This document shows, in pieces, positions 46,153 to 60,329 of a stretch of DNA of 64,000 nt. A program made the translations under genes and the position numbers. The notes below the pieces were generated by a model that did not search any database, was not told where the DNA came from, and saw nothing but the letters and a program-made list of their open reading frames with translations. Positions within the stretch are counted from its first letter, which is position 1. Every line of letters starts with the position of its first letter. This stretch comes from Kiritimatiellia bacterium (lineage in GTDB: Bacteria > Verrucomicrobiota > Kiritimatiellia > RFP12 > UBA1067). The stretch spans positions 33,865-97,864 of the forward strand of contig JAFSMR010000039.1 of the NCBI GenBank assembly GCA_017447805.1, written 5' to 3'.

Positions 46153-47025
46153 CTAGCCAACTACCCCATGCTCAGGGCGCATATTTTCGCCTAAGAGCGC
46201 AAGTTTCGGGTCTGAAGAAGAATAATCTTGTATCCAACCATTTTCAAAGCCAAAATCCGCCGCGGCTTCACATACGCTTTCATATTCTTCATGCGTAATA
46301 GCTCTATCTAACGGCGGCAGATTTTTAGCCATGTAAGCTGGCGTATATTGACTCATTATCGAAACTGGAATTTCATTCGATAAATCCGTAGCGATCCACG
46401 CTAGATTTTCTATCGCTTCATCCGCAAGGCCCGGCAACACGAGTATTCTGACGATTAGCTTCGTGTTCTCGTAAGCCCATTTGACGGCGCTTCTCGCATT
46501 TTCCACATAATCCGGAGCGAAAGAATATTTTTTTGCACTATCTCGAGAAGAATATCTCAAATCGAAAAGTGCCCAATCGCAAAATTCGCGATATTCTTCT
46601 AGCGTTTCCACTCTTTCATATCCCGAAGAATTCCATACGAAAGGCAATCGTATATTTTCTTCCTTAAGCTTTTCTGCGGCCTCGCGGATAAAGCCGAGAT
46701 ATGGCGTAGGCGATACGAGATTCCAATTTTCTACCATATCCTTAAGCGCCAAATCGCGCATAATGGCGACTAATTCTTCAATGCTCTTATCTGTCCCTTC
46801 GCCCTTCCAGCTCCACGGCGAATTTTGACAATATACGCATTTCATCGTGCAGCGCGAAAAGAAGATGCACCCAGACCCCTTCTCGCCTGCAATCGGAGGT
46901 TCCTCGCCAAAATGCGGTCCCCAGCGAAATAACCTTACTTTATCTCCTGCGCCGCAAAAGCCCGCGCTATGGAGTCTATCGACTTTACATCTTCTCGGAC
47001 ACAGCTCGCAGCGCTCAAGATTCAT
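46153..47025 (-). CDS. Radical SAM protein, PflX-like (putative glycyl-radical-enzyme activase family)
   Basis: 290 aa with an N-terminal CxxCxxxC...C cluster (CELCPRRC) and the canonical CTMKCVYC. Confidence 0.75.
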   Translation of the reverse strand: MNLERCELCPRRCKVDRLHSAGFCGAGDKVRLFRWGPHFGEEPPIAGEKGSGCIFFSRCTMKCVYCQNSPWSWKGEGTDKSIEELVAIMRDLALKDMVENWNLVSPTPYLGFIREAAEKLKEENIRLPFVWNSSGYERVETLEEYREFCDWALFDLRYSSRDSAKKYSFAPDYVENARSAVKWAYENTKLIVRILVLPGLADEAIENLAWIATDLSNEIPVSIMSQYTPAYMAKNLPPLDRAITHEEYESVCEAAADFGFENGWIQDYSSSDPKLALLGENMRPEHGVVG

Positions 47026-50917: not shown

Positions 50918-51904
50918 TTACTCGATTAGCATGACAATCCCAACATCTTTCAATGCGTTGAAGTTTAATTGCGCTACTTTGTCACCGAGGAAGTATCTCA
51001 TGATGGAATCTGATATCAATTGTGTTGGTGCGAATGGAACAAGTACAGATGTCTTATCCGAAATCCCGTTCATTTCATGTCGCGTCGTAAACACATAGTA
51101 AACCTCGTCTCTCCCGCCTTTGTGGGGAATAGTGAAGTAGCCGAAAGTGAAATCGTCGTTAAGAATCCATTTCGCACTTGATGTGTCATCGGGTCTATTA
51201 CCGTGTTTCTGTTCGAAGTTTCGCATCATTTCCCTTACAATATCAATTTGTGCTGCATTCATCTTTGCGGAAGTACTGGCAAAGGAAAGTCCGTTCGTGC
51301 CATCCTCGCTCCAGCGTATCTCACCGTCTAGGAACTGTGCCAGTTTGCCCTTGATCGAGGTCTCAAATCGTTTGGCAAAGTCAAGATTAAGTCCTGTAGC
51401 GTTCGTGACGGACAACAAGGTGGGAAACGGACTCCAACTTGGATCCGTGAATCCAAGCCACTTGTCTATGTACGCTCTTCTCCCGCACTCCACGCGGAAA
51501 GCAAGCGGCTCGTTCGAAACTGGCAATGGCCGACCACCATTCGTTGTTATGGCATCAGCTGCATTTTCGATCAGGACTCTTTCATTGCCGTGATACGCCA
51601 GCCGAAGGATTGCCTTCATCATTTCCGAACCACGATGCCCGGCCCTGCACCACCATTTCATGGCTTCGGCCTTGTCCGCAACCGTGGCGCCCTTGTCGTA
51701 GTAGGCCCAGCCCATCATCTCTTGTGCCTCGACATTTCCCGCTTCGGCTGCCTTACGGTAGCGTTCTGCATCCTTTTTGGCAACCCCACGTTCTTTACCT
51801 GTACCTTTGGCATTATTTTCTTGCAGATTTTCGCTCTTGGCATAAGCACAAAAAGCAATCGCACTAGTAACTATTATAAAAACTGTGGTTTTATAGCGAT
51901 TCAT
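50918..51904 (-). CDS. Exported Sel1-repeat protein with an uncharacterised C-terminal domain (last gene of the RiPP-like operon)
   Basis: 328 aa with a signal peptide and a Sel1 repeat (AERYRKAAEAGNVEAQEMMGWAYYDKG...AMKWW). Strong SD (AAGGAGG) 18 nt after the ABC gene stop. Confidence 0.65.
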   Translation of the reverse strand: MNRYKTTVFIIVTSAIAFCAYAKSENLQENNAKGTGKERGVAKKDAERYRKAAEAGNVEAQEMMGWAYYDKGATVADKAEAMKWWCRAGHRGSEMMKAILRLAYHGNERVLIENAADAITTNGGRPLPVSNEPLAFRVECGRRAYIDKWLGFTDPSWSPFPTLLSVTNATGLNLDFAKRFETSIKGKLAQFLDGEIRWSEDGTNGLSFASTSAKMNAAQIDIVREMMRNFEQKHGNRPDDTSSAKWILNDDFTFGYFTIPHKGGRDEVYYVFTTRHEMNGISDKTSVLVPFAPTQLISDSIMRYFLGDKVAQLNFNALKDVGIVMLIE

Positions 51905-51922: not shown

Positions 51923-53692
51923 TTAAGTAACTCCTGATTGTTCACGCGAAACGAGCGAAGCAAATAACCCCGGTTTTGTCGCAAGGTCGTTGTATGCTCC
52001 TTCTTGGGCAATATGCCCTGATTCCATGACAATGATACGATGCATATTGCGAACAGCAGACAAACGATGACTTATAAAGATTATGGTCTTATCCCGACAT
52101 TCTTCATCAAACATGCGCATTACCCTGTCTTGTGAAAGCTCATCCAAAGGCGCAGTTACTTCATCGAGCAGAACAACGTCTGGGTTCCCGACCAAAGCAC
52201 GAGCTAGTGCAATCTTTGATGCCTGCCCACCTGAAATCCCCTGACCATCCGCTCCGATTCCATAATCTAATGCCTTTAGGACATCCTCATCCTTCTGCAG
52301 CAAATCGTCAGTAAGCGCAACGGAATCCAGTATTCTTTTTAACTGCTTATCACCAAGACAAAGATTGCGTCCGACAAAAATGTTGTCACGAATTGTCCCT
52401 TGAAAAATGAACGGCTTTTGCGAGACATAGGCAACATGTCTGGTGTAATACTCAAAGTTTATTTCTTCAATGTTTTCCCCGCCTAAACAAATCGCACCGA
52501 ATGTTGGCGTAAGATGGCGTATGATCAATCGTAACAGAGTTGATTTACCGCACCCAGACGGGCCTACGATTGCGATATGCTCTCCCGGTTCCACGGAAAT
52601 GCTTATATGCTTAAGAATTGTTACTTTATCCGAAAGGGCGAATTGGACATCTTGTAAGGCCAATCTTGGTTTGATATTATTAGGCAATCGTCCTACGGTA
52701 TGACCATATGAATCGGGCAGTGCTTCAAGTTCCTTTAGCCGTAGAATCGCCTTCCTTGACTTTTGCCAACCAAGGACAATTTCTACGACCTGAACCATTG
52801 ACATATTAAATGCGCCGCATAAGGCGGAAAAGCCCATATAATCTGAAAAAGCGAATCCATTTCCTTCGTGAAATATGAGACACGCCGCTACTGAAAGAAC
52901 TGTGAACTGAGAAATCCCCCACACTAACCCACCAAGATTCCCGAAAAGAATGTGCAAGGTAAAGAGACGGATACGCATATCGCGGGATGGTGTGATTGTT
53001 TCAATTAGGCGTTTGATTGCAAATGGAAATGAATAAGAGGCCCTAATATCGGCCACACCACGCAATGTTTCTGTAGCGACAAGAAACTCTTTTTCCGATG
53101 CGTCTGCCTGTCGTTGGTCAATTGACATCACCTTTCTGTTTCCCAACAAAAATAGCAAATGAAGCGGTGTCATGCCGATAATGACGGAAGCCAGCAATGC
53201 ATTTCCTTGTTGATGGGCGAAATTGAAATTACTTTCTAAGAAATATGGAGAACCAAAATACATTAAGTAGACACTGATTATTAAGCCTAGTACTGCAAGT
53301 GGCGCATCCACCCAAAGAGAAAGATTGTATGTTGTCGCAGTTTCTGTATCACGAGATATGCGTCGAACGACTTTTTCTGGCTCATTCTGAAGTAGGAAGT
53401 CATTTCGAGTGAAAAGAATTTTTTTCATTAGCCTGATTGTCCAGTCGGATATTTGAATTACAGACAATTTCCCTCGAATGACAGAAGAAAACGTCCGCGC
53501 CACTACATTTCCAATGACAGCACACAAGAACAACAGCATAAGTTTAACAATATGAGATGCGCTATCTAGCTTACAATGCGCCAACACATCAGTTACGCTT
53601 TTAAGCGCCATTGGTTCAATGAATGACTGGCAGATCGGCAGAAACATTCCGATCAACCAGCAAATGACAAGCAGATTCAAGTATTTTCTCAT
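51923..53692 (-). CDS. ABC exporter (fused TMD-NBD) without a C39 peptidase domain
   Basis: 589 aa. Six-TM N-half, Walker A GPSGCGKST, signature ISGGQASK, Walker B VVLLDEVT. ATGA overlap with the upstream gene. Confidence 0.85.
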   Translation of the reverse strand: MRKYLNLLVICWLIGMFLPICQSFIEPMALKSVTDVLAHCKLDSASHIVKLMLLFLCAVIGNVVARTFSSVIRGKLSVIQISDWTIRLMKKILFTRNDFLLQNEPEKVVRRISRDTETATTYNLSLWVDAPLAVLGLIISVYLMYFGSPYFLESNFNFAHQQGNALLASVIIGMTPLHLLFLLGNRKVMSIDQRQADASEKEFLVATETLRGVADIRASYSFPFAIKRLIETITPSRDMRIRLFTLHILFGNLGGLVWGISQFTVLSVAACLIFHEGNGFAFSDYMGFSALCGAFNMSMVQVVEIVLGWQKSRKAILRLKELEALPDSYGHTVGRLPNNIKPRLALQDVQFALSDKVTILKHISISVEPGEHIAIVGPSGCGKSTLLRLIIRHLTPTFGAICLGGENIEEINFEYYTRHVAYVSQKPFIFQGTIRDNIFVGRNLCLGDKQLKRILDSVALTDDLLQKDEDVLKALDYGIGADGQGISGGQASKIALARALVGNPDVVLLDEVTAPLDELSQDRVMRMFDEECRDKTIIFISHRLSAVRNMHRIIVMESGHIAQEGAYNDLATKPGLFASLVSREQSGVT

Positions 53693-54279
53693 TTCGGCAA
53701 TGACTTTATTGATGGCCTATTCTCTGTTCTAACTTCAACCGTCAATAATTCTGAATGTCGTGGAAGAGAAAGCTCACTAACTTTGGTTGACAACCCTCGT
53801 CTTAACGCTTCCTTGGATGAGAAAACATGCCCTTTCTCTGTCATATAGTTTTGCCAACTATGTTTGGAAATTCCGGTTTTCCGTGCTAAGTATGAAATGA
53901 CATTCTTGTATTCCTGGCGTAACTTTCTATATTCAAGACCAAGTGCATCAAGAGAGTAATTCCCTGAGAGTTCGATGTTTACGGTGTGAGCAAGAAATTC
54001 TCCTTCGGGGATACATATTCTTTCAATACCTGCTGCGTATATTACAAGCGCGGCAGAGTCGCACCTCGCTGTATTGTATGTAATTAGCTTACAAGACAAA
54101 CCCTCTAGGATTTTAGCTATCCCCATTGCAACAGGAACAGAGCCACCCGGAGAATTAATGAGCAAATGCAATTCCTTTGTCGCATCAGGGACCTTGTCTA
54201 CTAGTGTATCAATCAGCGCTTGCGCCGTTATTGCCGTGACGGGCAAAGGGAAGTTGATGTATTTGCAAGCGTCACACAT
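53689..54279 (-). CDS. ClpP-fold (S14-like) serine protease, candidate leader peptidase
   Basis: 196 aa. LLINSPGGSV matches the ClpP INSPGG block. Ser (CDSAA) and His (LAHTV) align with the ClpP catalytic Ser/His by hand alignment. The Asp position is not conserved. Confidence 0.65.
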   Translation of the reverse strand: MCDACKYINFPLPVTAITAQALIDTLVDKVPDATKELHLLINSPGGSVPVAMGIAKILEGLSCKLITYNTARCDSAALVIYAAGIERICIPEGEFLAHTVNIELSGNYSLDALGLEYRKLRQEYKNVISYLARKTGISKHSWQNYMTEKGHVFSSKEALRRGLSTKVSELSLPRHSELLTVEVRTENRPSIKSLPK

Positions 54280-54297
54280 GGAATGGAACCTCGATCT

Positions 54298-55440
54298 TTA
54301 TAAATACTTTGCCTCTGGTATTGTTTTTAGAAGACGGATGGCATTTTTCGCATTTTGCACCATGTCTTCGTCTAGATGAAAATTCCTCGCCACCAACTTC
54401 TGCACATGCCTTAAGAATAATGTAGCGCACGCTCTCGCCTGAACTTTCTTCATCTTGCAGAATGTTGTGGCACTTGCCGAGATGCCAATATCATCATGTA
54501 TCTTCAGATTCATGGCCGGACATTGCTTACAAACAGCATATATTGGGCAGTTCTTACATCGTGGATCAACAGGAATTTGCTTTATTAATTTTCCATTGCG
54601 TCTAATCCAGTCGGACTTTTCCTTCCCTATTACACACGAAGAAAACAAATGGCAGTTGTATTGTGTGCCATCTGCATCATAAGATACGAGATTGTTATTA
54701 AATGTGCAAAATGGATAGTAATCAGGAGTCTCTTTGAAAAACAACCCGACATCAAATGGAAAAATCCCAGACAGTTTGCCTTCATGTAAATCATCAATGT
54801 ACATTTCCATCAATTCTTCCAATTGTTCTTCGAAGACTATAATATCACTATCTTCCCATTTGAATCCAATGCCTACATCGACAGAAATTGAAATCCTTTC
54901 TGCGACCATTTCCTTAATCGTTTTGGCAAAAAATGGCAATGTATTCCTGAAAAGTACGATTTTGACACGTTCTTTGGGCCAATTATTCGTGAAGAATCTA
55001 TAATCTATGGACTTGTCCGTTCTTGTCAGTTTCTGCGTCTCATTCAATCCGTCAAGGCTTAGTGCGACATGGATCCGTTGACGATTCGCAAGTAGCCATT
55101 CCTTTATTTCATCGGTGAGCAATGTCCCGTTTGTTCTAACGTCCAAACTATATGGCACCGGCATTTCTTCGCTCCAGAGCCACTCCGAAACCGACTTAAT
55201 CAACCTGAAATTCAAAAAAGGTTCGCCGCCGAGAAAAGATATGGCAAGGGCAGATGTCCTATTATCATTTGCAGTACTTTGAAATTCCATCTTCAGAATT
55301 TCGCGACAACATTCAATAGACATGAATGATGTCGTTTTAAAACTTTCATAGCAATATCTACAGTTTAGATTGCAGGCTTGTGTAACAAGCAAAACAACCT
55401 GTTTTGTCTTTGTGTTTCCCAAATCTGTTTTGTAATACAT
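54298..55440 (-). CDS. Radical SAM/SPASM peptide maturase (paralog 2)
   Basis: CNLNCRYCYE (Cx3Cx2C) near the N-terminus. SPASM cysteines Cx12Gx4C (CTFNNNLVSYDADGTQYNC) and CKNCPIYAVCKQC, plus a later FCK. ATG at 55440 preferred; the ORF track has a GTG at 55470 abutting a hairpin. Confidence 0.85.
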   Translation of the reverse strand: MYYKTDLGNTKTKQVVLLVTQACNLNCRYCYESFKTTSFMSIECCREILKMEFQSTANDNRTSALAISFLGGEPFLNFRLIKSVSEWLWSEEMPVPYSLDVRTNGTLLTDEIKEWLLANRQRIHVALSLDGLNETQKLTRTDKSIDYRFFTNNWPKERVKIVLFRNTLPFFAKTIKEMVAERISISVDVGIGFKWEDSDIIVFEEQLEELMEMYIDDLHEGKLSGIFPFDVGLFFKETPDYYPFCTFNNNLVSYDADGTQYNCHLFSSCVIGKEKSDWIRRNGKLIKQIPVDPRCKNCPIYAVCKQCPAMNLKIHDDIGISASATTFCKMKKVQARACATLFLRHVQKLVARNFHLDEDMVQNAKNAIRLLKTIPEAKYL

Positions 55441-55471
55441 ACTTTCAATCTCGCAATCCGACTTGTTCACA

Positions 55472-55516
55472 CAGTGCTATGACAGTGCGATCTTTGTTCG
55501 TCCTGCCATAGCACTG
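55472..55516 (-). promoter_or_regulatory. Intercistronic stem-loop between the precursor genes and maturase 2
   Basis: In minus-strand RNA: CAGUGCUAUGGCAG - 17 nt loop - CUGUCAUAGCACUG (14 bp with one G-U). No U-tract follows. Confidence 0.6.
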
Positions 55517-55562
55517 ACTTTTCATTGTTGCAAGTTCTGTTGCATTATGAACAAGTTTTTTC

Positions 55563-55748
55563 TTACCTTGCCCATGCGCTGCAGCTGCCTTGGCAACCAC
55601 CACTGCAACCATTCTTACAAGACATATAGCAACCACCATCGCAACCGAAGTTGGTCGCATCATGCTTTACGGCGATATCACCATGATGCTCAGAATAAGC
55701 ACCAAGCATGGCTTCAACGGCCTGTAGTTCATTTGCATTGATCTTCAT
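55563..55748 (-). CDS. CxxxC-repeat precursor peptide A (61 aa)
   Basis: MKINANELQAVEAMLGAYSEHHGDIAVKHDATNFG-CDGGCYMSCKNGCSGGCQGSC-SAWAR. SD AGGAGGTG lies 6 nt upstream of this ATG. Confidence 0.8.
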   Translation of the reverse strand: MKINANELQAVEAMLGAYSEHHGDIAVKHDATNFGCDGGCYMSCKNGCSGGCQGSCSAWAR

Positions 55749-55898
55749 ATTTGTCACCTCCTTTCCGACCTTGTTGGTCTAATTGTTTTTAGAATGGATA
55801 TGGATAATCGACAATTTCCATTTCTAGATTTTCGTAGCGACAAGCTCGACAAGCATTACTACAACTCATATTACAACTATCATTTCTTTTATTTGTAT

Positions 55899-56135
55899 TC
55901 AGGATTGGATTCTAGCTACCTTATTATCTCGCCAGATGTTATTACAGCTACCAGCGCAACCTCCACCGCAACGGCTCATGCAGAACATATAACAACTGCC
56001 AGCGCAAGCGCTGTAGCAACCACCATCGCAATTCAAGTTGGTAACATCATGCTTTATAGCGATATCACCCTGATACTCGCAATAAGAACCTAACATTTTT
56101 TCAACTACCAGCAGTTCGTTGATATGGATCTTCAT
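55899..56135 (-). CDS. CxxxC-repeat precursor peptide B (78 aa)
   Basis: MKIHINELLVVEKMLGSYCEYQGDIAIKHDVTNLN-CDGGCYSACAGSCYMFCMSRCGGGCAGSC-NNIWRDNKVARIQS. SD GAGGGA upstream. Confidence 0.8.
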   Translation of the reverse strand: MKIHINELLVVEKMLGSYCEYQGDIAIKHDVTNLNCDGGCYSACAGSCYMFCMSRCGGGCAGSCNNIWRDNKVARIQS

Positions 56136-56156
56136 CTTTGAATCCCTCATTTTAAC

Positions 56157-56363
56157 CTAACGGAACGCTCTAACACATGTTCCAGAACAGCTTCCCATAC
56201 AATGATTCTCAAAACAGCAAAATCGGCATGTATGAACACAACTCATATAGCATGCACCACCGCAGTTAGTCGCATCTTGTTCAATTCTTACATTCCCACT
56301 CTGTCTTTGGAAAGAGTTCAACAGGATTTCTAAGTACCTTAATTCTTGCTCATCTATTTTCAT
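56157..56363 (-). CDS. CxxxC-repeat precursor peptide C (68 aa)
   Basis: MKIDEQELRYLEILLNSFQRQSGNVRIEQDATN-CGGACYMSCVHTCRFCCFENHCMGSCSGTC-VRAFR. SD GGAGGA upstream. Confidence 0.8.
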   Translation of the reverse strand: MKIDEQELRYLEILLNSFQRQSGNVRIEQDATNCGGACYMSCVHTCRFCCFENHCMGSCSGTCVRAFR

Positions 56364-56388
56364 TTCTACTATCCTCCTCTTCTTGAAG

Positions 56389-57591
56389 TCAAACGAAAAA
56401 AGGCGATGTTACCTTAAACGGATCAAGTTTATTTAAGACCTTGTATGCTTCAATTGCTCCTTTAGCATGTATCGCATCTGTTTCATCTAATACTTCTCGT
56501 CTCTGTGCAAGCATCTTGATTTGAAATTCGCAAGCAACAAATTTTTCTGCAAAAACCATCTTGCACCAGTTATGGTCGCGCCTCGCAACATTGCCACGAT
56601 AGCGATAGTTAAAACCGGCACATGTAGGACATACTCTTTTCAATATACACTCTCTACAATATGGATCCTCTGTTGCCTCTGCGCAACTCCATTCAAATTT
56701 TTCGAGTTCCTTTGCTTGGTCTCCTAAGACAATGGGCGCAAAAAGGTGGCAACCATACGCTTTCCCATCAACATCATATGTGACCATGTGTGTTCCTGTT
56801 CCACACCATTTTTCTTGTTTCAAATCTCGTATATTATTTGATGCTTTAATATTGAGCGCCCGTGATAGCAAGTTTATCGGTCTCAATTCAGGCTCATTCA
56901 AATAGGTCTCGCTCAGAGCATGCAGCTGATTAAGATAGGCTTCTGAATCATCGTTATCCCAATCAACACCTTGTGCAAGTGCCGCTTCCAAGGGATACCC
57001 TTTGCGTTGCAACTCCAAAATTCCTTCGGCGAGATGAGGCAATGTTTCCTGGGATATGGTCATGTGGAAACCTTGGTTCGGCCATGTATCATGAAAGAAG
57101 TCCATATCAATAGAACCTTTGTCGGTATCCCTGTTCTTTTTCTGCATTTCGGGCGTGCCATCATATGAAGCACCTACTGAAATGAGATGTTTGTGTTTAC
57201 GAAACCAATTCTTTCTTTCCTCGTCGAAAAGAGTCCCGTTGGTTGTAATGAAAAATATCCATGGCACAGGGAGCGGCTTCCCCTCGGTCCATTCAACAAG
57301 ACGCTTAATGAGATCGAAATTCATCATGGGTTCTCCTCCCATGAGATCAATCTCAAGTTCGTGGAACAGAGGGCTTGTCTGAACGACATGACATTCTTTT
57401 AAAATCAATTCTTTGGCAAGGTCAAATGACATAGTCTTGTTAGACTTATGTTTTTCGTAACAGTAAGTACAATTCAAGTTACATGCATGGGTAATCATAA
57501 GCATGCAAGTTCTTCGTCCAGTATATGGCGGGCGTTCCCAAATTTGAGTTGACATCTTAGGATTTCCCTCTTGACAATCATCTTTATTCAT
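56389..57591 (-). CDS. Radical SAM/SPASM peptide maturase (paralog 1)
   Basis: CNLNCTYCYE. SPASM cysteines Cx12Gx4C (CGTGTHMVTYDVDGKAYGC) and CRECILKRVCPTC, plus WCK. ATG at 57591 with AGGAAAG upstream preferred; the ORF track has a TTG at 57630. Confidence 0.85.
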   Translation of the reverse strand: MNKDDCQEGNPKMSTQIWERPPYTGRRTCMLMITHACNLNCTYCYEKHKSNKTMSFDLAKELILKECHVVQTSPLFHELEIDLMGGEPMMNFDLIKRLVEWTEGKPLPVPWIFFITTNGTLFDEERKNWFRKHKHLISVGASYDGTPEMQKKNRDTDKGSIDMDFFHDTWPNQGFHMTISQETLPHLAEGILELQRKGYPLEAALAQGVDWDNDDSEAYLNQLHALSETYLNEPELRPINLLSRALNIKASNNIRDLKQEKWCGTGTHMVTYDVDGKAYGCHLFAPIVLGDQAKELEKFEWSCAEATEDPYCRECILKRVCPTCAGFNYRYRGNVARRDHNWCKMVFAEKFVACEFQIKMLAQRREVLDETDAIHAKGAIEAYKVLNKLDPFKVTSPFFV

Positions 57592-57607
57592 AGTTATCTT
57601 TCCTAGC

Positions 57608-57796
57608 TTATTCGTATGGATTTTTACCAATCAATTCACTTTCGTTTTGTTGTGAAAAAATTCCGGCGCGGCAGGCTTTATGCACCGCGTTAATGACATA
57701 TATTATGCAGAAAACTGCTACGCCAAGCACTATCGCAAGAGTAGCGAACCATTTTAAACATGACAGAACTTTACGAAGCGGTTTCACGTTTTTCAA
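57608..57796 (-). CDS. Small single-pass membrane protein (hypothetical)
   Basis: 62-aa ORF with one TM helix (WFATLAIVLGVAVFCIIYVI). Non-ATG (TTG) start overlapping the upstream stop. Confidence 0.35.
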   Translation of the reverse strand: MKNVKPLRKVLSCLKWFATLAIVLGVAVFCIIYVINAVHKACRAGIFSQQNESELIGKNPYE

Positions 57797-58419
57797 TTTA
57801 AATCACCAAATTCTGAGTATTCTTGTTCTGCATCATCCGCAATCTTCGCTACTGTTCGTATAGCTTCTGCCAAATCTTTGCTTCTTTCTGCGTCGGCTGC
57901 GGAGAAAACAAACACAAGGGCGTTACGCTCAACTTTCTCTCTCTTCACCTCAACAGTTACTTCCTTTTGCAACCACTCTCCCTCGACCATGCAATTTCTG
58001 TTCAATGTCTTTATCCAACCATTAGGGATTGTATAGTTCTCCTCTGGAACAATGTAGGCTATTGATTCAAGCCTCCTATTGGGCCAAACATACACAAATT
58101 GCCGGCGATTTCCAACTGACACCTTCACTTTATATGATCCGTCTTTTTGCGGTTCATACTTAAGTCGTTCTGCAGCAAGAGCGGTGCGAACACCCAATTT
58201 TGACGATGCTTTTTGCGCAGTGGTTCCAACCATGCGAGTTTGATCACAATCTGCTCGTGAAGATCGTCCAGGCGAAAAATTGGTTTGGGTTGCCTGTTGC
58301 GACCTTTGCGGCCTTCTAGCATCTATACTGGTTTTATATCCTGAATTGCCTTGGGCTATATTTGCTTTAGCATAAGCCGATCCAAGCGCACAAACAAAAC
58401 ATGTAAGCAATAGTTTCAT
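57793..58419 (-). CDS. Hypothetical exported protein
   Basis: 208 aa with signal peptide MKLLLTCFVCALGSAYA, a disordered S/T/Q/R-rich region, then a compact C-terminal domain with an acidic tail. SD GAGG upstream. Confidence 0.6.
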   Translation of the reverse strand: MKLLLTCFVCALGSAYAKANIAQGNSGYKTSIDARRPQRSQQATQTNFSPGRSSRADCDQTRMVGTTAQKASSKLGVRTALAAERLKYEPQKDGSYKVKVSVGNRRQFVYVWPNRRLESIAYIVPEENYTIPNGWIKTLNRNCMVEGEWLQKEVTVEVKREKVERNALVFVFSAADAERSKDLAEAIRTVAKIADDAEQEYSEFGDLN

Positions 58420-58432
58420 GGTGCTACCTCGA

Positions 58433-58738
58433 TTATTTATTCACCCAGCAACCACCAGCGGCATTGCATTGTGGACATGCAGGTGCCATTACACAGTTCG
58501 TACACATCCGTTTACCACCATAACATGCAGTACACGCCCATCCCATAAATGTCCCCGTACCATTACAGACGGTGCATCTCATTTGCCCTGTTCCGTTGCA
58601 ATACGAACATAGGAACTTTCGCCCGTTGCATCGGGGACATGTTACCCAAACTAATTCTGCAATGGCAGAAAGTGCGATCATCGCAATTATAACAAGACCA
58701 ATTACTTTTAAGCGATTGAATCCGAGCTTCTTCTTCAT
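58433..58738 (-). CDS. Membrane-anchored DnaJ-type zinc-finger (CxxCxGxG repeat) protein
   Basis: 101 aa. N-terminal TM helix, then CPRCNGRK, CSYCNGTG, CTVCNGTG, CTACYGGK, CTNC and CPQCNAAG. Confidence 0.7.
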   Translation of the reverse strand: MKKKLGFNRLKVIGLVIIAMIALSAIAELVWVTCPRCNGRKFLCSYCNGTGQMRCTVCNGTGTFMGWACTACYGGKRMCTNCVMAPACPQCNAAGGCWVNK

Positions 58739-59076: not shown

Positions 59077-59463
59077 TTAGAGCGCGGCGATTTCGTCGGC
59101 GGAAAGGCCGGTCAGTTCTGTGATGCTATCCGCTGGAAGTTTCTTGGACAACATCCGACGTGCGCAGATGACAGCACCTTGCCGCTCCCCTGCATCAAAG
59201 ACTCGTCTGAATTCCTTGTCAATTGAACTGGAAATTGGTTCTCGAAGCACCTTGCTTAGAAAATGACATTCCAGCATAATTGTATCACGAAAGTGGTCAA
59301 TCGTATTGTCACAACGTTCCCAATCCTTCTTGACCATAGGCTTGTTTTCCAGCATTTCAACATACTTCTTGATGTTTATAATGCTGTCAGCCAAGTCGGT
59401 GATTCGACTGGCGATGTGAGCGTCCACCTCTTCTGGTGTCATCTTTACTTCGTGCAGCCCCAT
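59077..59463 (-). CDS. Hypothetical protein with an Rpn-C-terminus-like HTH tail
   Basis: 128 aa. The tail ...LPADSITELTGLSADEIAAL resembles the C-terminus of the upstream PD-(D/E)XK protein (VEQVSKVTGLTPTEVETL). Overlaps that gene by 19 nt. Confidence 0.45.
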   Translation of the reverse strand: MGLHEVKMTPEEVDAHIASRITDLADSIINIKKYVEMLENKPMVKKDWERCDNTIDHFRDTIMLECHFLSKVLREPISSSIDKEFRRVFDAGERQGAVICARRMLSKKLPADSITELTGLSADEIAAL

Positions 59464-60329
59464 AAAGTCTCTACCTCAGTAGGCGTTAAACCCGTAACCT
59501 TTGAAACCTGTTCAACTGACATTCCGACTTCTTTAAGATTACAAATGGTCTGCCTTAATCTTTCCTTCACCGCATCGCGCTCGGCATGTGCCGCGTCAAT
59601 TTGCATCTGCGCCTCTCTCTTGACATCGGCGATAATCGTCCTTCTGCTGCTCACGATGTCCCAGAACCTGTCGTATGCATCCATCTCCGCAGGGCTGTAG
59701 GCAGACTCCCGCACAATCTCCAGCGCTTGCCCCGTATGTGGATTTTCGAGAAGATCCTGCGACACTTCGTCTGCGCCATCATGGCCAATTTCGGTGAGGA
59801 AACGGAGCCATAGAACCTGCATCTTCTTCTCGGTGAGGTTCTTCGCCTTGAACTTGGGGAGTTCGACAAAGACAAGATGCAAACCTTCCAGCACCTTGTC
59901 GGAGTGCAGGTAGTGGACAAGGCGGTAGTAGTGGTAGTAATCGTCCAAATCCGGCTCAAAGGTTGCGTTTACGAGGTTGAGCGAATAAACCGGCTGCAGC
60001 AATTCGTACTCGTCGCCTTTCTCAAGCTGTTTAACGTATGCCTTTGAAGCGTTGAGCAGAACGCGCTGCTTGAACGATGTCGTCCACTCCATCTGCATCT
60101 CGACGATGAACTTGCGCCCGCCAGTCTCCTCGCACCGCACATCAACGGAAGTGTTCTTGTTGATCGGAGTGCGCGGAACCATTTCCGCCGGCAGATATTC
60201 TATCGACTCGACCTGTTTGCCCTCGTCAAGAGGCAACAATGCGTTTAGCAAGCTCGTGACGAGATTTTTATGCTCGCCAAAAACCTTCTTGAATGTCACA
60301 TCCGCCTTAGGATCGAGGTATTTTGCCAT
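59445..60329 (-). mobile_element. PD-(D/E)XK nuclease family putative transposase (Rpn / PDDEXK_2 type)
   Basis: 294 aa. N-terminal YLDPKADVTFKKVFGEHKNL..., DV..E..G..FIVEMQ nuclease core and FVELPKF block. Confidence 0.8.

Follow-up and report, generated by a model that had tools for sequence, protein, structure and literature searches.

Tandem Cys-Xaa-Xaa-Xaa repeats encoded beside a radical SAM (rSAM) enzyme with a SPASM domain, the Haft CXXX-repeat system, have been known since about 2011 from comparative genomics, as rSAM targets captured by curated NCBIfam/TIGRFAM models. To our knowledge the system is chemically uncharacterised. Our literature search found no report of a product of these targets, and a search on Akkermansia rSAM RiPPs and on CX3C RiPPs returned nothing relevant. 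Small thioether rings set in line along the peptide are made by PapB, the maturase of freyrasin; the repeat of its substrate PapA is C-x3-D/E, in which the Cys sulfur is joined to the C-beta of Asp, and a conserved Asn in the PapA leader has been proposed to serve in enzyme recognition (PMC9413430). Streptosactin carries four-residue sactionine rings that are unnested, and in type 2 sactipeptides donors and acceptors alternate (PMC9389541), while enzymes that form in-line rings cluster with those of the PapB type (PMC10288494). Thuricin CD (TrnC/D) and ruminococcin C (RumMC1/2) are sactipeptide clusters with two maturases and several precursors (PMC8188230, PMC9389541).

We analysed a stretch of 64,000 nucleotides from an uncultured Kiritimatiellia bacterium of the gut (the window), in which three Cys-rich peptides are encoded between two rSAM/SPASM enzymes. 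As in the PapB/freyrasin system, a SPASM rSAM accompanies a leader-bearing peptide with a periodic i/i+4 Cys motif of about six repeats; the differences are that the i+4 residue is an Asp acceptor in PapA and another Cys in the family of the window, that the leader is a different one, and that the window cluster adds a ClpP-like protease. Tandem Cys-Xaa-Xaa-Xaa repeats beside a SPASM rSAM are shared with the CXXX-repeat system, which however has a separate TIGR04119 partner that the window cluster lacks; moreover, the leader found here is covered by no model, and ClpP-like and ABC genes are added. The core statistics resemble the unnested four-residue rings of type 2 sactipeptides (streptosactin/GggB, QmpA/QmpB), and the Ser, Thr or Gly found at +3 of the repeat would fit a link from Cys(i) to C-alpha(i+3), but type 2 sactipeptides have 2 rings, against 5-15 possible in the window family, and come from streptococcal hosts whose clusters have no ClpP-like gene. 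SCIFF and its maturase CteB (thermocellin) also combine a Cys-rich substrate with a thioether in the product; CteB, however, begins with an RRE of about 98 residues where the window rSAM has none, and SCIFF is a highly conserved, single-copy peptide whose six Cys lack x3 periodicity. Finally, several precursor paralogs with two SPASM rSAMs in one gut-bacterial cluster recall thuricin CD and ruminococcin C, although in those peptides one half is a Cys-free acceptor stretch and the product is a nested hairpin, whereas the window cores have no such acceptor region. The type 1 (hairpin) layout of a Cys donor half and a Cys-free acceptor half of similar length is therefore not the one found here.

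The island and its three precursors

The locus is an operon-like island of seven co-directional, tightly spaced genes of low GC, which in order encode rSAM/SPASM maturase 1, the precursors PepC, PepB and PepA, rSAM/SPASM maturase 2, a ClpP-fold Ser-His peptidase and an ABC exporter. They are listed here with one neighbour on either side:

58433 to 58738, minus strand: membrane-anchored Cys-rich (multi-CxxC) protein of 101 aa, a possible accessory and lineage-specific neighbour
56389 to 57630, minus strand: rSAM/SPASM maturase 1 (rSAM1), maximal ORF 413 aa; likely start Met at 57555, giving 388 aa
56157 to 56363, minus strand: pepC, 68-aa precursor with 9 core Cys, of the 'CCFENxC' core subtype
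55899 to 56135, minus strand: pepB, precursor of 78 aa; its 8 core Cys all keep x3 spacing and are followed by a 14-aa tail
55563 to 55748, minus strand: pepA, precursor of 61 aa; its 6 core Cys all keep x3 spacing
54298 to 55470, minus strand: rSAM/SPASM maturase 2 (rSAM2), 390 aa, PF04055 match
53689 to 54279, minus strand: ClpP-fold serine peptidase, the candidate leader peptidase, 196 aa, PF00574 match
51923 to 53692, minus strand: ABC exporter (permease-ATPase) without a C39 peptidase domain, 589 aa, PF00005 and PF00664 matches
50918 to 51904, minus strand: protein of 328 aa with an N-terminal hydrophobic segment, 3' of the exporter, a lineage-specific neighbour

Our check of the ORFs in the window found pepA, pepB and pepC on the minus strand at the limits first given for them, and the translations, core strings and Cys counts are identical to those of the initial annotation. 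Its claim that each gene has its own Shine-Dalgarno (SD) sequence can be read directly from the DNA. The pepA start, an ATG at 55748, is preceded 6 nt upstream by AGGAGGTG (55755-55762); that of pepB, at 56135, by GAGGGA 7 nt upstream (56143-56148); and that of pepC, at 56363, by GGAGGA 8 nt upstream (56372-56377). For pepA, a longer GTG ORF reaching 55757 is not needed. Scanning for promoters and terminators gave no enrichment over shuffled sequences, and an Rfam search of the 51.5-59 kb region returned no RNA element. As for the two neighbours, the multi-CxxC protein adjoins rSAM1 in four related loci (L001, L016, L018 and L019, 71-91% identity), is not seen in the loci of other phyla and has no family match in profile searches. 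The 328-aa protein, equally without a family match in profile searches, has a 74.5% identical counterpart immediately after the ABC gene of L016 and is a possible member of the cluster.

The three peptides have in common a leader of about 33 aa, followed by a core of C-x3-C repeats. Their alignment is invariant at M1, K2, I3, E7, L8, E12, L15, G23, D30, T32 and N33, after which the Cys ladder begins. PepB has one additional Cys in its leader (C19), which the initial annotation overlooked, and the PepC core is irregular at one CC and one x4 interval, a subtype also represented by the recorded peptides P0126 and P0133. The leader DNA of pepA and pepB is 79% identical, which indicates duplication. 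The pepB frame is also that of pepC, with a TAG stop between them, and elsewhere a read-through fusion is found (P0123). The exact PepA protein is on record as a hypothetical protein of a Kiritimatiellae MAG (P0001), and its L001 ortholog shares 97% identity and exactly the same core, the codon differences being 4 synonymous and 2 conservative. More generally, cores compared between orthologs are either unchanged or carry mostly synonymous changes.

The same two-part organisation is conserved in 45 family peptides. Leader length is fixed, the first core Cys falling at position 34-36 in 40 of them, and the leader ends in [S/T]-x-N, which is directly followed by Cys. The initial annotation had taken D-[AV]-T-N as the conserved junction; this does not hold for the family, because the Asp and the Ala/Val are lineage-specific. 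Cleavage of the leader at the [S/T]-x-N/Cys junction is plausible. In the cores, 250 of 301 Cys-Cys intervals (83%) are exactly x3 and the units follow the consensus C-x-G-[S/T]: Gly fills 51% of the +2 positions, and Ser, Thr or Gly fill 69% of the +3 positions; the tail after the last Cys measures 3-8 aa in 42 of the 45 peptides, and in the window only PepB has one of 14 aa. An exhaustive profile search places the peptides in about 36 clusters at the 50% identity level.

Core composition bears on what could be made from these peptides. The 45 cores contain 23% Cys and 17% Gly, and Asp and Glu together make up only 2.2%, so that they cannot follow the PapB acceptor logic of Asp or Glu at i+4; a C-x3-[DE] unit is missing from all three window cores. 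Strict conservation is confined to Cys and its small neighbours, aromatic residues show no conservation, and since the +3 position is not strictly conserved either, no acceptor can be named. The earlier suggestion that the spacing places all thiols on one face of a helix is not supported by cores so rich in Gly, in particular at +2, and in PapB, the best-matching characterised enzyme family, helical spacing is not needed (PMC9413430). As to the CXXX-repeat models, 17 of 37 family peptides touch TIGR04117 and 7 of 37 touch TIGR04114 at E<=0.01, and PF27846 is precomputed on P0148, P0124 and P0147. The window peptides stay below the cutoffs (PepA, PepB and PepC at 20-21 bits against 50 for TIGR04117, PepC at 17.7 bits against 20 for TIGR04114), and therefore what is shared with the CXXX-repeat system is the type of repeat, not membership.

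Maturases, peptidase and exporter

Both rSAM1 and rSAM2 match PF04055 and PF13353. The CxxxCxxC motif of rSAM1 (C25/C29/C32) and its SPASM cysteines (C251, C269, C300, C303, C309, C312 and C331) do not vary among 44 homologs, and rSAM2, at 31% identity, also has CxxxCxxC and aligns with rSAM1 over the full SPASM Cys set. This is the seven-Cys SPASM motif for two auxiliary clusters (C-x(n)-G-x4-C ... C-x2-C-x5-C-x(2-3)-C ... C), with a last spacing of x2 against the canonical x3. PapB (model NF047865) is the top-scoring curated family for the two window enzymes and for all 44 homologs, the best of which reaches E 3.7e-40; the window scores, 132.8 bits for rSAM1 and 112.5 bits for rSAM2, lie far under the cutoff of 340. 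TIGR04115 gives 106.8 and 84.3 bits (cutoff 350), the SCIFF maturase model TIGR03974 gives 93 bits (cutoff 425) and the GggB model about 37-44 bits (cutoff 650), and TIGR04119 matches at the domain level inside rSAM1 only (36 bits, cutoff 150). We count all of the best-matching curated families, namely PapB, the CXXX-repeat family, the nif11-type maturase and SCIFF, as thioether-forming.

The AF2 model of rSAM1 (pLDDT 88.6) has CteB as its top PDB neighbour (E 7.5e-17), which is also the best solved structure by sequence (E 3e-16). An N-terminal RRE is absent: the first CteB residue to be aligned is 99, and only 13 residues precede the first core strand in the model. Other fold neighbours are SuiB, the cyclophane synthase ChlB, the Cys-oxidising anSME and the epimerase EpeE. 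A second rSAM is found in some related loci (L001, L005, L007, L016 and L027) and is missing from many family members.

From the relatedness of these enzymes we infer that thioethers are formed, Cys being the probable modified residue. The presence of anSME (E ~3e-12), ChlB and EpeE among the fold neighbours would also suit RiPP precursors whose rSAMs perform another chemistry, be it formylglycine-type Cys oxidation, epimerisation or C-C cross-linking, with the cysteines finally forming disulfides or an array that binds Cu, Zn or Fe-S. No curated thioether family reaches its cutoff (133 bits at best, against cutoffs of at least 340), and cores with such a Cys and Gly content look like those of metal-binding peptides. 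However, the best matches by sequence and by fold are the thioether maturases PapB, SCIFF and CteB, it is only Cys and the small residues nearby that are strictly conserved in the cores, and the exporter indicates a secreted product instead of an intracellular metal store, so that we regard a non-thioether chemistry as unlikely. A cyclophane product was rejected, since it requires aromatic residues and those of the cores are not conserved.

The ClpP-like protein matches PF00574, the ClpP family (MEROPS S14), with E 8e-16 (58.8 bits, gathering score 20.2), and its AF2 model (pLDDT 87) superposes on ClpP1 9uxt with a TM of 0.84 and an rmsd of 1.7 A. Identity to housekeeping ClpP is only 28%. Ser75, in a D-S-A-A motif, and His98 are invariant across phyla, the position of the ClpP Asp is occupied by Gly in a column that is not conserved across phyla, and the protein is likely to be a Ser-His dyad enzyme. 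ClpP normally forms a barrel that works with an unfoldase, and our literature search found no precedent for a member of its family in precise RiPP leader cleavage. Of 11 related genome loci 10 have the gene, as do L016, L018, L019, L021 and L027. The start of the exporter gene overlaps its stop by 4 nt. The exporter matches the NHLP-type bacteriocin exporters TIGR03797 and TIGR03796; its alignment to TIGR03796 starts at profile position 155, therefore the peptidase domain is missing, which leaves the ClpP-like protein as the sole protease in the module.

The module across phyla

A module of rSAM, C-x3-C peptide and ClpP-like gene, usually with the ABC exporter, recurs across gut MAGs of Kiritimatiellia, Akkermansia, Melainabacteria, Bacillota and Alphaproteobacteria. 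According to the initial annotation, homologous peptides should always be found beside rSAM genes, and this is what we observe from each of three starting points. Starting from the maturase, which forms at least 324 clusters when grouped at 90% identity, a C-x3-C peptide adjoins the rSAM in 11 of 11 loci whose rSAM is at least 40% identical, in at least 5 phyla. Starting from the peptide, an rSAM is adjacent on every contig long enough to show neighbours, and two short contigs (L020 and L024) have rSAM fragments beside the peptide. The ClpP-like start recovers the same cassette. In each locus the leader HMM matches exactly one ORF, with E 1e-14 to 1e-17; for PepC the value is E 4e-15. A leader HMM built from nine leaders of other phyla ranks the three precursors 1st to 3rd of the 1,415 ORFs of 25 aa or more in the window (E-values of 9e-8, 3e-4 and 0.08), so that the pattern of three precursors is more than chance.

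In two distant members, L009 and L023, with about 40% identity, the leader is of another kind and a ClpP-like gene could not be detected, which sets the boundary of the family near 45% maturase identity. Loci L012 to L015, at about 26% identity, lie outside it. One of these, the Paenibacillus locus L013, had been considered as a PapA/PapB reference and turned out to be a different multi-rSAM cluster.

Conserved leaders with diversified cores next to SPASM rSAMs are generic features of RiPP precursor paralogs, as which the initial annotation had identified the three genes, and the comparison bears this out. The idea that they are chance ORFs, or encode unmodified Cys-rich bacteriocin-like peptides next to unrelated rSAMs, can point to our local Pfam search, in which none of 37 family peptides was matched, but it is essentially refuted by the comparative data and we give it very little credence: the peptide lies next to an rSAM in every related locus, each precursor gene has its own SD, substitutions between orthologs are mostly synonymous, and the leader is conserved at a fixed length. 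Thiazole/oxazole (heterocycloanthracin-like) or lanthipeptide-type cores are more improbable still, given that the required YcaO, dehydrogenase, LanB, LanC or LanM genes are absent from the module in the approximately 20 loci examined and that the match to TIGR03601 (heterocycloanthracin) is compositional, being weak (best E 2e-4) and found in 2 of 37 family peptides; the cores of the family do abound in Cys, Ser and Thr.

Proposed pathway and its implications

We think it probable that pepA, pepB and pepC are paralogous RiPP precursors of a seven-gene island in which the rSAM enzymes install thioether rings, the ClpP-fold protein removes the leader and the ABC transporter exports the product. 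The cluster is best read as belonging to an unnamed sister family, one that would yield multiply thioether-bridged peptides. According to this model, the amphipathic leader segment M-x-[IV]-x3-EL-x2-[LV]-x3-L-x2-[YF], which is followed by G-x-[IV] and ends in [S/T]-x-N, would dock the precursor onto one or both of the RRE-less rSAM/SPASM enzymes. Each enzyme would then cleave SAM, take an H atom from the core and join a Cys sulfur to a nearby carbon. The C-x-G-[S/T] repeat is predicted to end up carrying a row of small thioether rings, in-line and unnested, with 2 Da lost per ring, in a ring-building process that we liken to that of PapB in freyrasin and of GggB in streptosactin. The dedicated ClpP-fold Ser-His peptidase would remove or degrade the leader in the cytoplasm, and the ABC transporter, which has no C39 domain, would export the product, probably an antimicrobial or signalling peptide.

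A bolder proposal can be made only tentatively. The family may represent a new RiPP class, in which a single RRE-less SPASM enzyme zips 5 to 15 successive C-x-G-[S/T] units into an unbroken thioether ladder of small rings, with the i+3 residue or the i+4 Cys as the acceptor and each Cys able to act as donor and acceptor. It would also include the first ClpP-family RiPP leader peptidase, and its cassette would have moved by horizontal transfer between gut Akkermansia, Kiritimatiellia, Melainabacteria, Bacillota and Alphaproteobacteria. We hold this to be possible, yet doubtful as a whole.

The window offers a compact, well-delimited example of the family, with three natural substrate variants (6, 8 and 9 Cys), two candidate enzymes and relatives in Akkermansia and other gut bacteria, so that its chemistry can be tested directly through heterologous expression. 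Should the predicted rings form, the locus would supply a leader-guided enzyme for making many closely spaced thioethers, of interest for peptide stapling as PapB already is. If the role assigned here to the ClpP-like protein is true, the ClpP fold would gain a new function in the maturation of natural products. The distribution of the module across phyla in animal guts suggests that these bacteria secrete an ecologically relevant peptide.

The precursor genes and their surroundings

The three open reading frames that the initial annotation had picked out are present on the minus strand, each with an ATG and a Shine-Dalgarno (SD) site, which we read directly from the window sequence. Its leader pattern and core strings match our alignment exactly, save for a cysteine in the pepB leader (C19) that it left out.

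Features of the cluster and its surroundings, in window positions
46153-47025, minus strand: 290-aa radical SAM protein (PF04055, E 5e-15), 7 kb from the cluster, beside gyrA and enolase
50918-51904, minus strand: 328-aa protein with an N-terminal hydrophobic segment, following the ABC exporter
51923-53692, minus strand: ABC permease-ATPase, 589 aa; start overlaps the ClpP-like stop
53689-54279, minus strand: ClpP-like protein, 196 aa (Pfam CLP_protease)
54298-55470, minus strand: rSAM2, radical SAM/SPASM maturase, 31% identical to rSAM1
55563-55748, minus strand: pepA, 61 aa from the SD-supported ATG; SD AGGAGGTG 6 nt upstream of the start
55899-56135, minus strand: pepB, 78 aa from the SD-supported ATG; SD GAGGGA 7 nt upstream of the start
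56157-56363, minus strand: pepC, 68 aa from the SD-supported ATG; SD GGAGGA 8 nt upstream of the start
56389-57630, minus strand: rSAM1, radical SAM/SPASM maturase; probable start 57555
57793-58419, minus strand: 208-aa, secreted-looking ORF between the Cys-rich membrane protein and rSAM1
58433-58738, minus strand: 101-aa protein, membrane-anchored at its N-terminus, with many CxxC pairs (CPRCNG, CSYCNGTG, CTVCNGTG, others)
59445-60329, minus strand: PD-(D/E)XK nuclease-family transposase gene (PF12784, E 2e-40), 1.8 kb upstream of the cluster

A leader HMM built without the window sequences placed pepA, pepB and pepC at ranks 1-3 of 1,415 window ORFs, and a database search returned an identical pepA protein from a Kiritimatiellae MAG. 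The orthologs compared show synonymous substitutions and an unchanged core. The neighbouring genes are all co-directional and tightly packed, in the order rSAM1, pepC, pepB, pepA, rSAM2, ClpP-like, ABC. GC content over 52-58 kb (52000-58000) is 41-42%, against about 50% in the flanks; together with the transposase gene and the cross-phylum distribution described below, the composition of the sequence suggests that the cassette was acquired horizontally.

A 590-bp segment with pepC and pepB (55790-56378) is missing from the 95% relative, locus L001. The leader DNA of pepA and pepB is 79% identical, which points to a duplication. pepC represents a separate 'CCFENxC' subtype that adjoins an A-type peptide in the related locus L016. 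Two-precursor arrays occur in L016, L020 and L021, and the three copies of the window form the largest array seen. pepC and pepB lie in one frame, with only a TAG stop and six codons between them (56136-56159, minus strand). P0123, a 154-aa protein encoded in another assembly, is the pepC-pepB read-through fusion, differing by a TAG-to-Gln change and one further substitution, and thereby provides a natural two-core precursor.

Four further genes of the region were considered. The 101-aa protein, whose CxxC pairs recall a DnaJ-type zinc finger, matched no family; homologs with 71-91% identity lie immediately upstream of rSAM1 in L001, L016, L018 and L019, and it may serve in an accessory or immunity role specific to this lineage. 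The 208-aa ORF, also with no family match, is missing from L001 (differing segment, 57787-58441), and its region is therefore an indel. The 328-aa protein, again with no family match, occupies the same place in L016 at 74.5% identity and diverges after 25 aa in L001. The 290-aa radical SAM protein shows no conservation with the cassette; probably it is an activase-type enzyme with a housekeeping role.

Conservation of the gene association and of the cores

A genome scan with rSAM1 recovered 11 loci at ≥40% identity, from Verrucomicrobia/Kiritimatiellia, four Akkermansia MAGs, Melainabacteria, Bacillota, Eubacteriales, Alphaproteobacteria and an unclassified rumen MAG. A C-x3-C peptide directly adjoins the rSAM gene in all 11, and a leader HMM matched exactly a single ORF at each locus, with three in the window (E 1e-14 to 1e-17). 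The ClpP-like gene is found in 10 of the 11 and the ABC gene in most; a second rSAM is present only in L001, L005 and L007. In the reverse direction, an exhaustive profile search with the peptide against 1.84 billion representatives gave 39 matches, about 36 of them peptides of 58-92 aa that combine this same leader with a core of Cys repeats. Neighbouring rSAM genes, which the initial annotation had proposed as a check, adjoin the peptide on every contig long enough to show neighbours, and contigs with more sequence also carry ClpP-like and ABC genes. The gene set, the bipartite conservation of the peptides and the three-way synteny tests thus establish a RiPP cluster.

Across 45 family peptides, cores contain 5-15 Cys (mean 7.7), and 250 of 301 inter-Cys gaps (83%) are exactly x3. 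Gly dominates position +2 (51%), position +3 holds Ser (33%), Thr (20%) or Gly (16%), and Asp plus Glu amount to 2.2% of core residues. The first core Cys falls at residue 34-36 in 40 of the 45, and 42 of the 45 end in an aromatic and basic tail of 3-8 aa after the last Cys. One core subtype, represented by seven peptides (P0124, P0125, P0129, P0130, P0141, P0153, P0159), has a conserved C-terminal Y-C-D-G-S-S-G-x-C-W-x-x-R tail that breaks the x3 periodicity; this tail could form a separate terminal ring or act as a recognition element. The first core Cys is typically preceded by [S/T]-x-N, whose Asn may mark the leader cleavage site or may instead be needed for recognition by the enzyme, the role proposed for an Asn of PapA (PMC9413430).

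The maturases and the chemistry of the product

Both rSAM1 and rSAM2 match Radical_SAM and Fer4_12. In 44 rSAM1 homologs the SAM-cluster cysteines (C25, C29, C32) and seven with SPASM spacing (C251, C269, C300, C303, C309, C312, C331) are invariant, and the alignment of rSAM2 to rSAM1 preserves all of them. The top NCBIfam matches for rSAM1, rSAM2 and 44/44 homologs are the PapB ranthipeptide maturase family (132.8 and 112.5 bits for rSAM1 and rSAM2; cutoff 340) and the CXXX-repeat target maturase TIGR04115 (106.8 and 84.3 bits; cutoff 350), followed by the nif11, SCIFF, HxsB and QhpD families; every score lies far under its cutoff. Database names for these proteins are generic only ('radical SAM protein', 'hypothetical', 'AslB'). 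The thioether synthase CteB is the nearest solved structure, both by sequence (E 3e-16) and by fold (E 7.5e-17, TM 0.66; AF2 model, pLDDT 88.6); next by fold come the cyclophane synthase ChlB, anSME, TigE, SkfB and SuiB. Since the alignment begins at CteB residue 99 and the AF2 model has only 13 residues ahead of the first core strand, there is no N-terminal RRE domain. About a tenth of the rSAM1 homologs listed are 550-655 aa long (P0018, P0022 from Akkermansia sp., P0040, L021:1597-3279), with an N-terminal extension of ~250 aa that resembles an ECF sigma factor (a weak Sigma70_r4_2 match and region-2-like sequence) and could either be a regulator fused to the enzyme or serve as a surrogate leader-binding winged helix.

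We consider it likely that pepA, pepB and pepC encode rSAM-modified RiPP precursors. As the nearest relatives of rSAM1 and rSAM2 are thioether formers, we infer this chemistry for them, and put the chances of thioethers in an in-line topology at about even. The best precedent for such an arrangement is the in-line small rings of PapB and of the type 2 sactipeptides streptosactin and QmpA (PMC9389541), whose enzymes cluster with those of the PapB type (PMC10288494). Candidate acceptors are the residue at +3, where it is Ser, Thr or Gly, or the next Cys at +4. A nested hairpin, as in type 1 sactipeptides, is unlikely because the cores lack a Cys-free acceptor half, and the Cys-to-Asp link that defines PapB (PMC9413430) is ruled out by the scarcity of acidic residues.

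Protease, exporter and relation to known families

The 196-aa ClpP-like protein scores above the Pfam CLP_protease threshold, and its model superimposes on ClpP1 with TM 0.84 and rmsd 1.7 Å. Ser (in D-S-A-A) and His at the ClpP catalytic positions do not vary among ten full-length orthologs, which come from different phyla; where ClpP has its triad Asp, the alignment shows Gly, in a column that is not conserved. The homolog search also yielded the housekeeping ClpP (P0181), which lies in tig-clpP synteny and shares only 28% identity with the ClpP-like protein. A homolog with 62% identity lies again inside an rSAM-peptide-rSAM-ClpP-like cassette. The match of the ABC protein to the NHLP exporter model TIGR03796 begins at profile position 155. 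Its C39 peptidase domain is therefore missing, which leaves the ClpP-like protein as the sole protease candidate of the module. In another family member (L027:5341-7543 and L028:2103-4305) genes for a GAF-domain protein and a subtilisin-like S8 peptidase come after the ClpP-like gene, in place of an ABC exporter; this pair is an alternative accessory set.

The window peptides share their core repeat type with the 'CXXX-repeat' rSAM target models of Haft (TIGR04114, TIGR04117, PF27846), which some family relatives reach. The window peptides and both maturases fall under every curated cutoff, no model covers the leader, and the TIGR04119 partner of the Haft system is absent from that of the window. 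We found no paper that deals with this family or with a RiPP cluster containing a ClpP-type protease, which is only weak evidence given that most subscription journals lay outside the search. Well supported as a gene cluster, the system represents a known kind of RiPP, the rSAM/SPASM-matured Cys-repeat type, in a new form.
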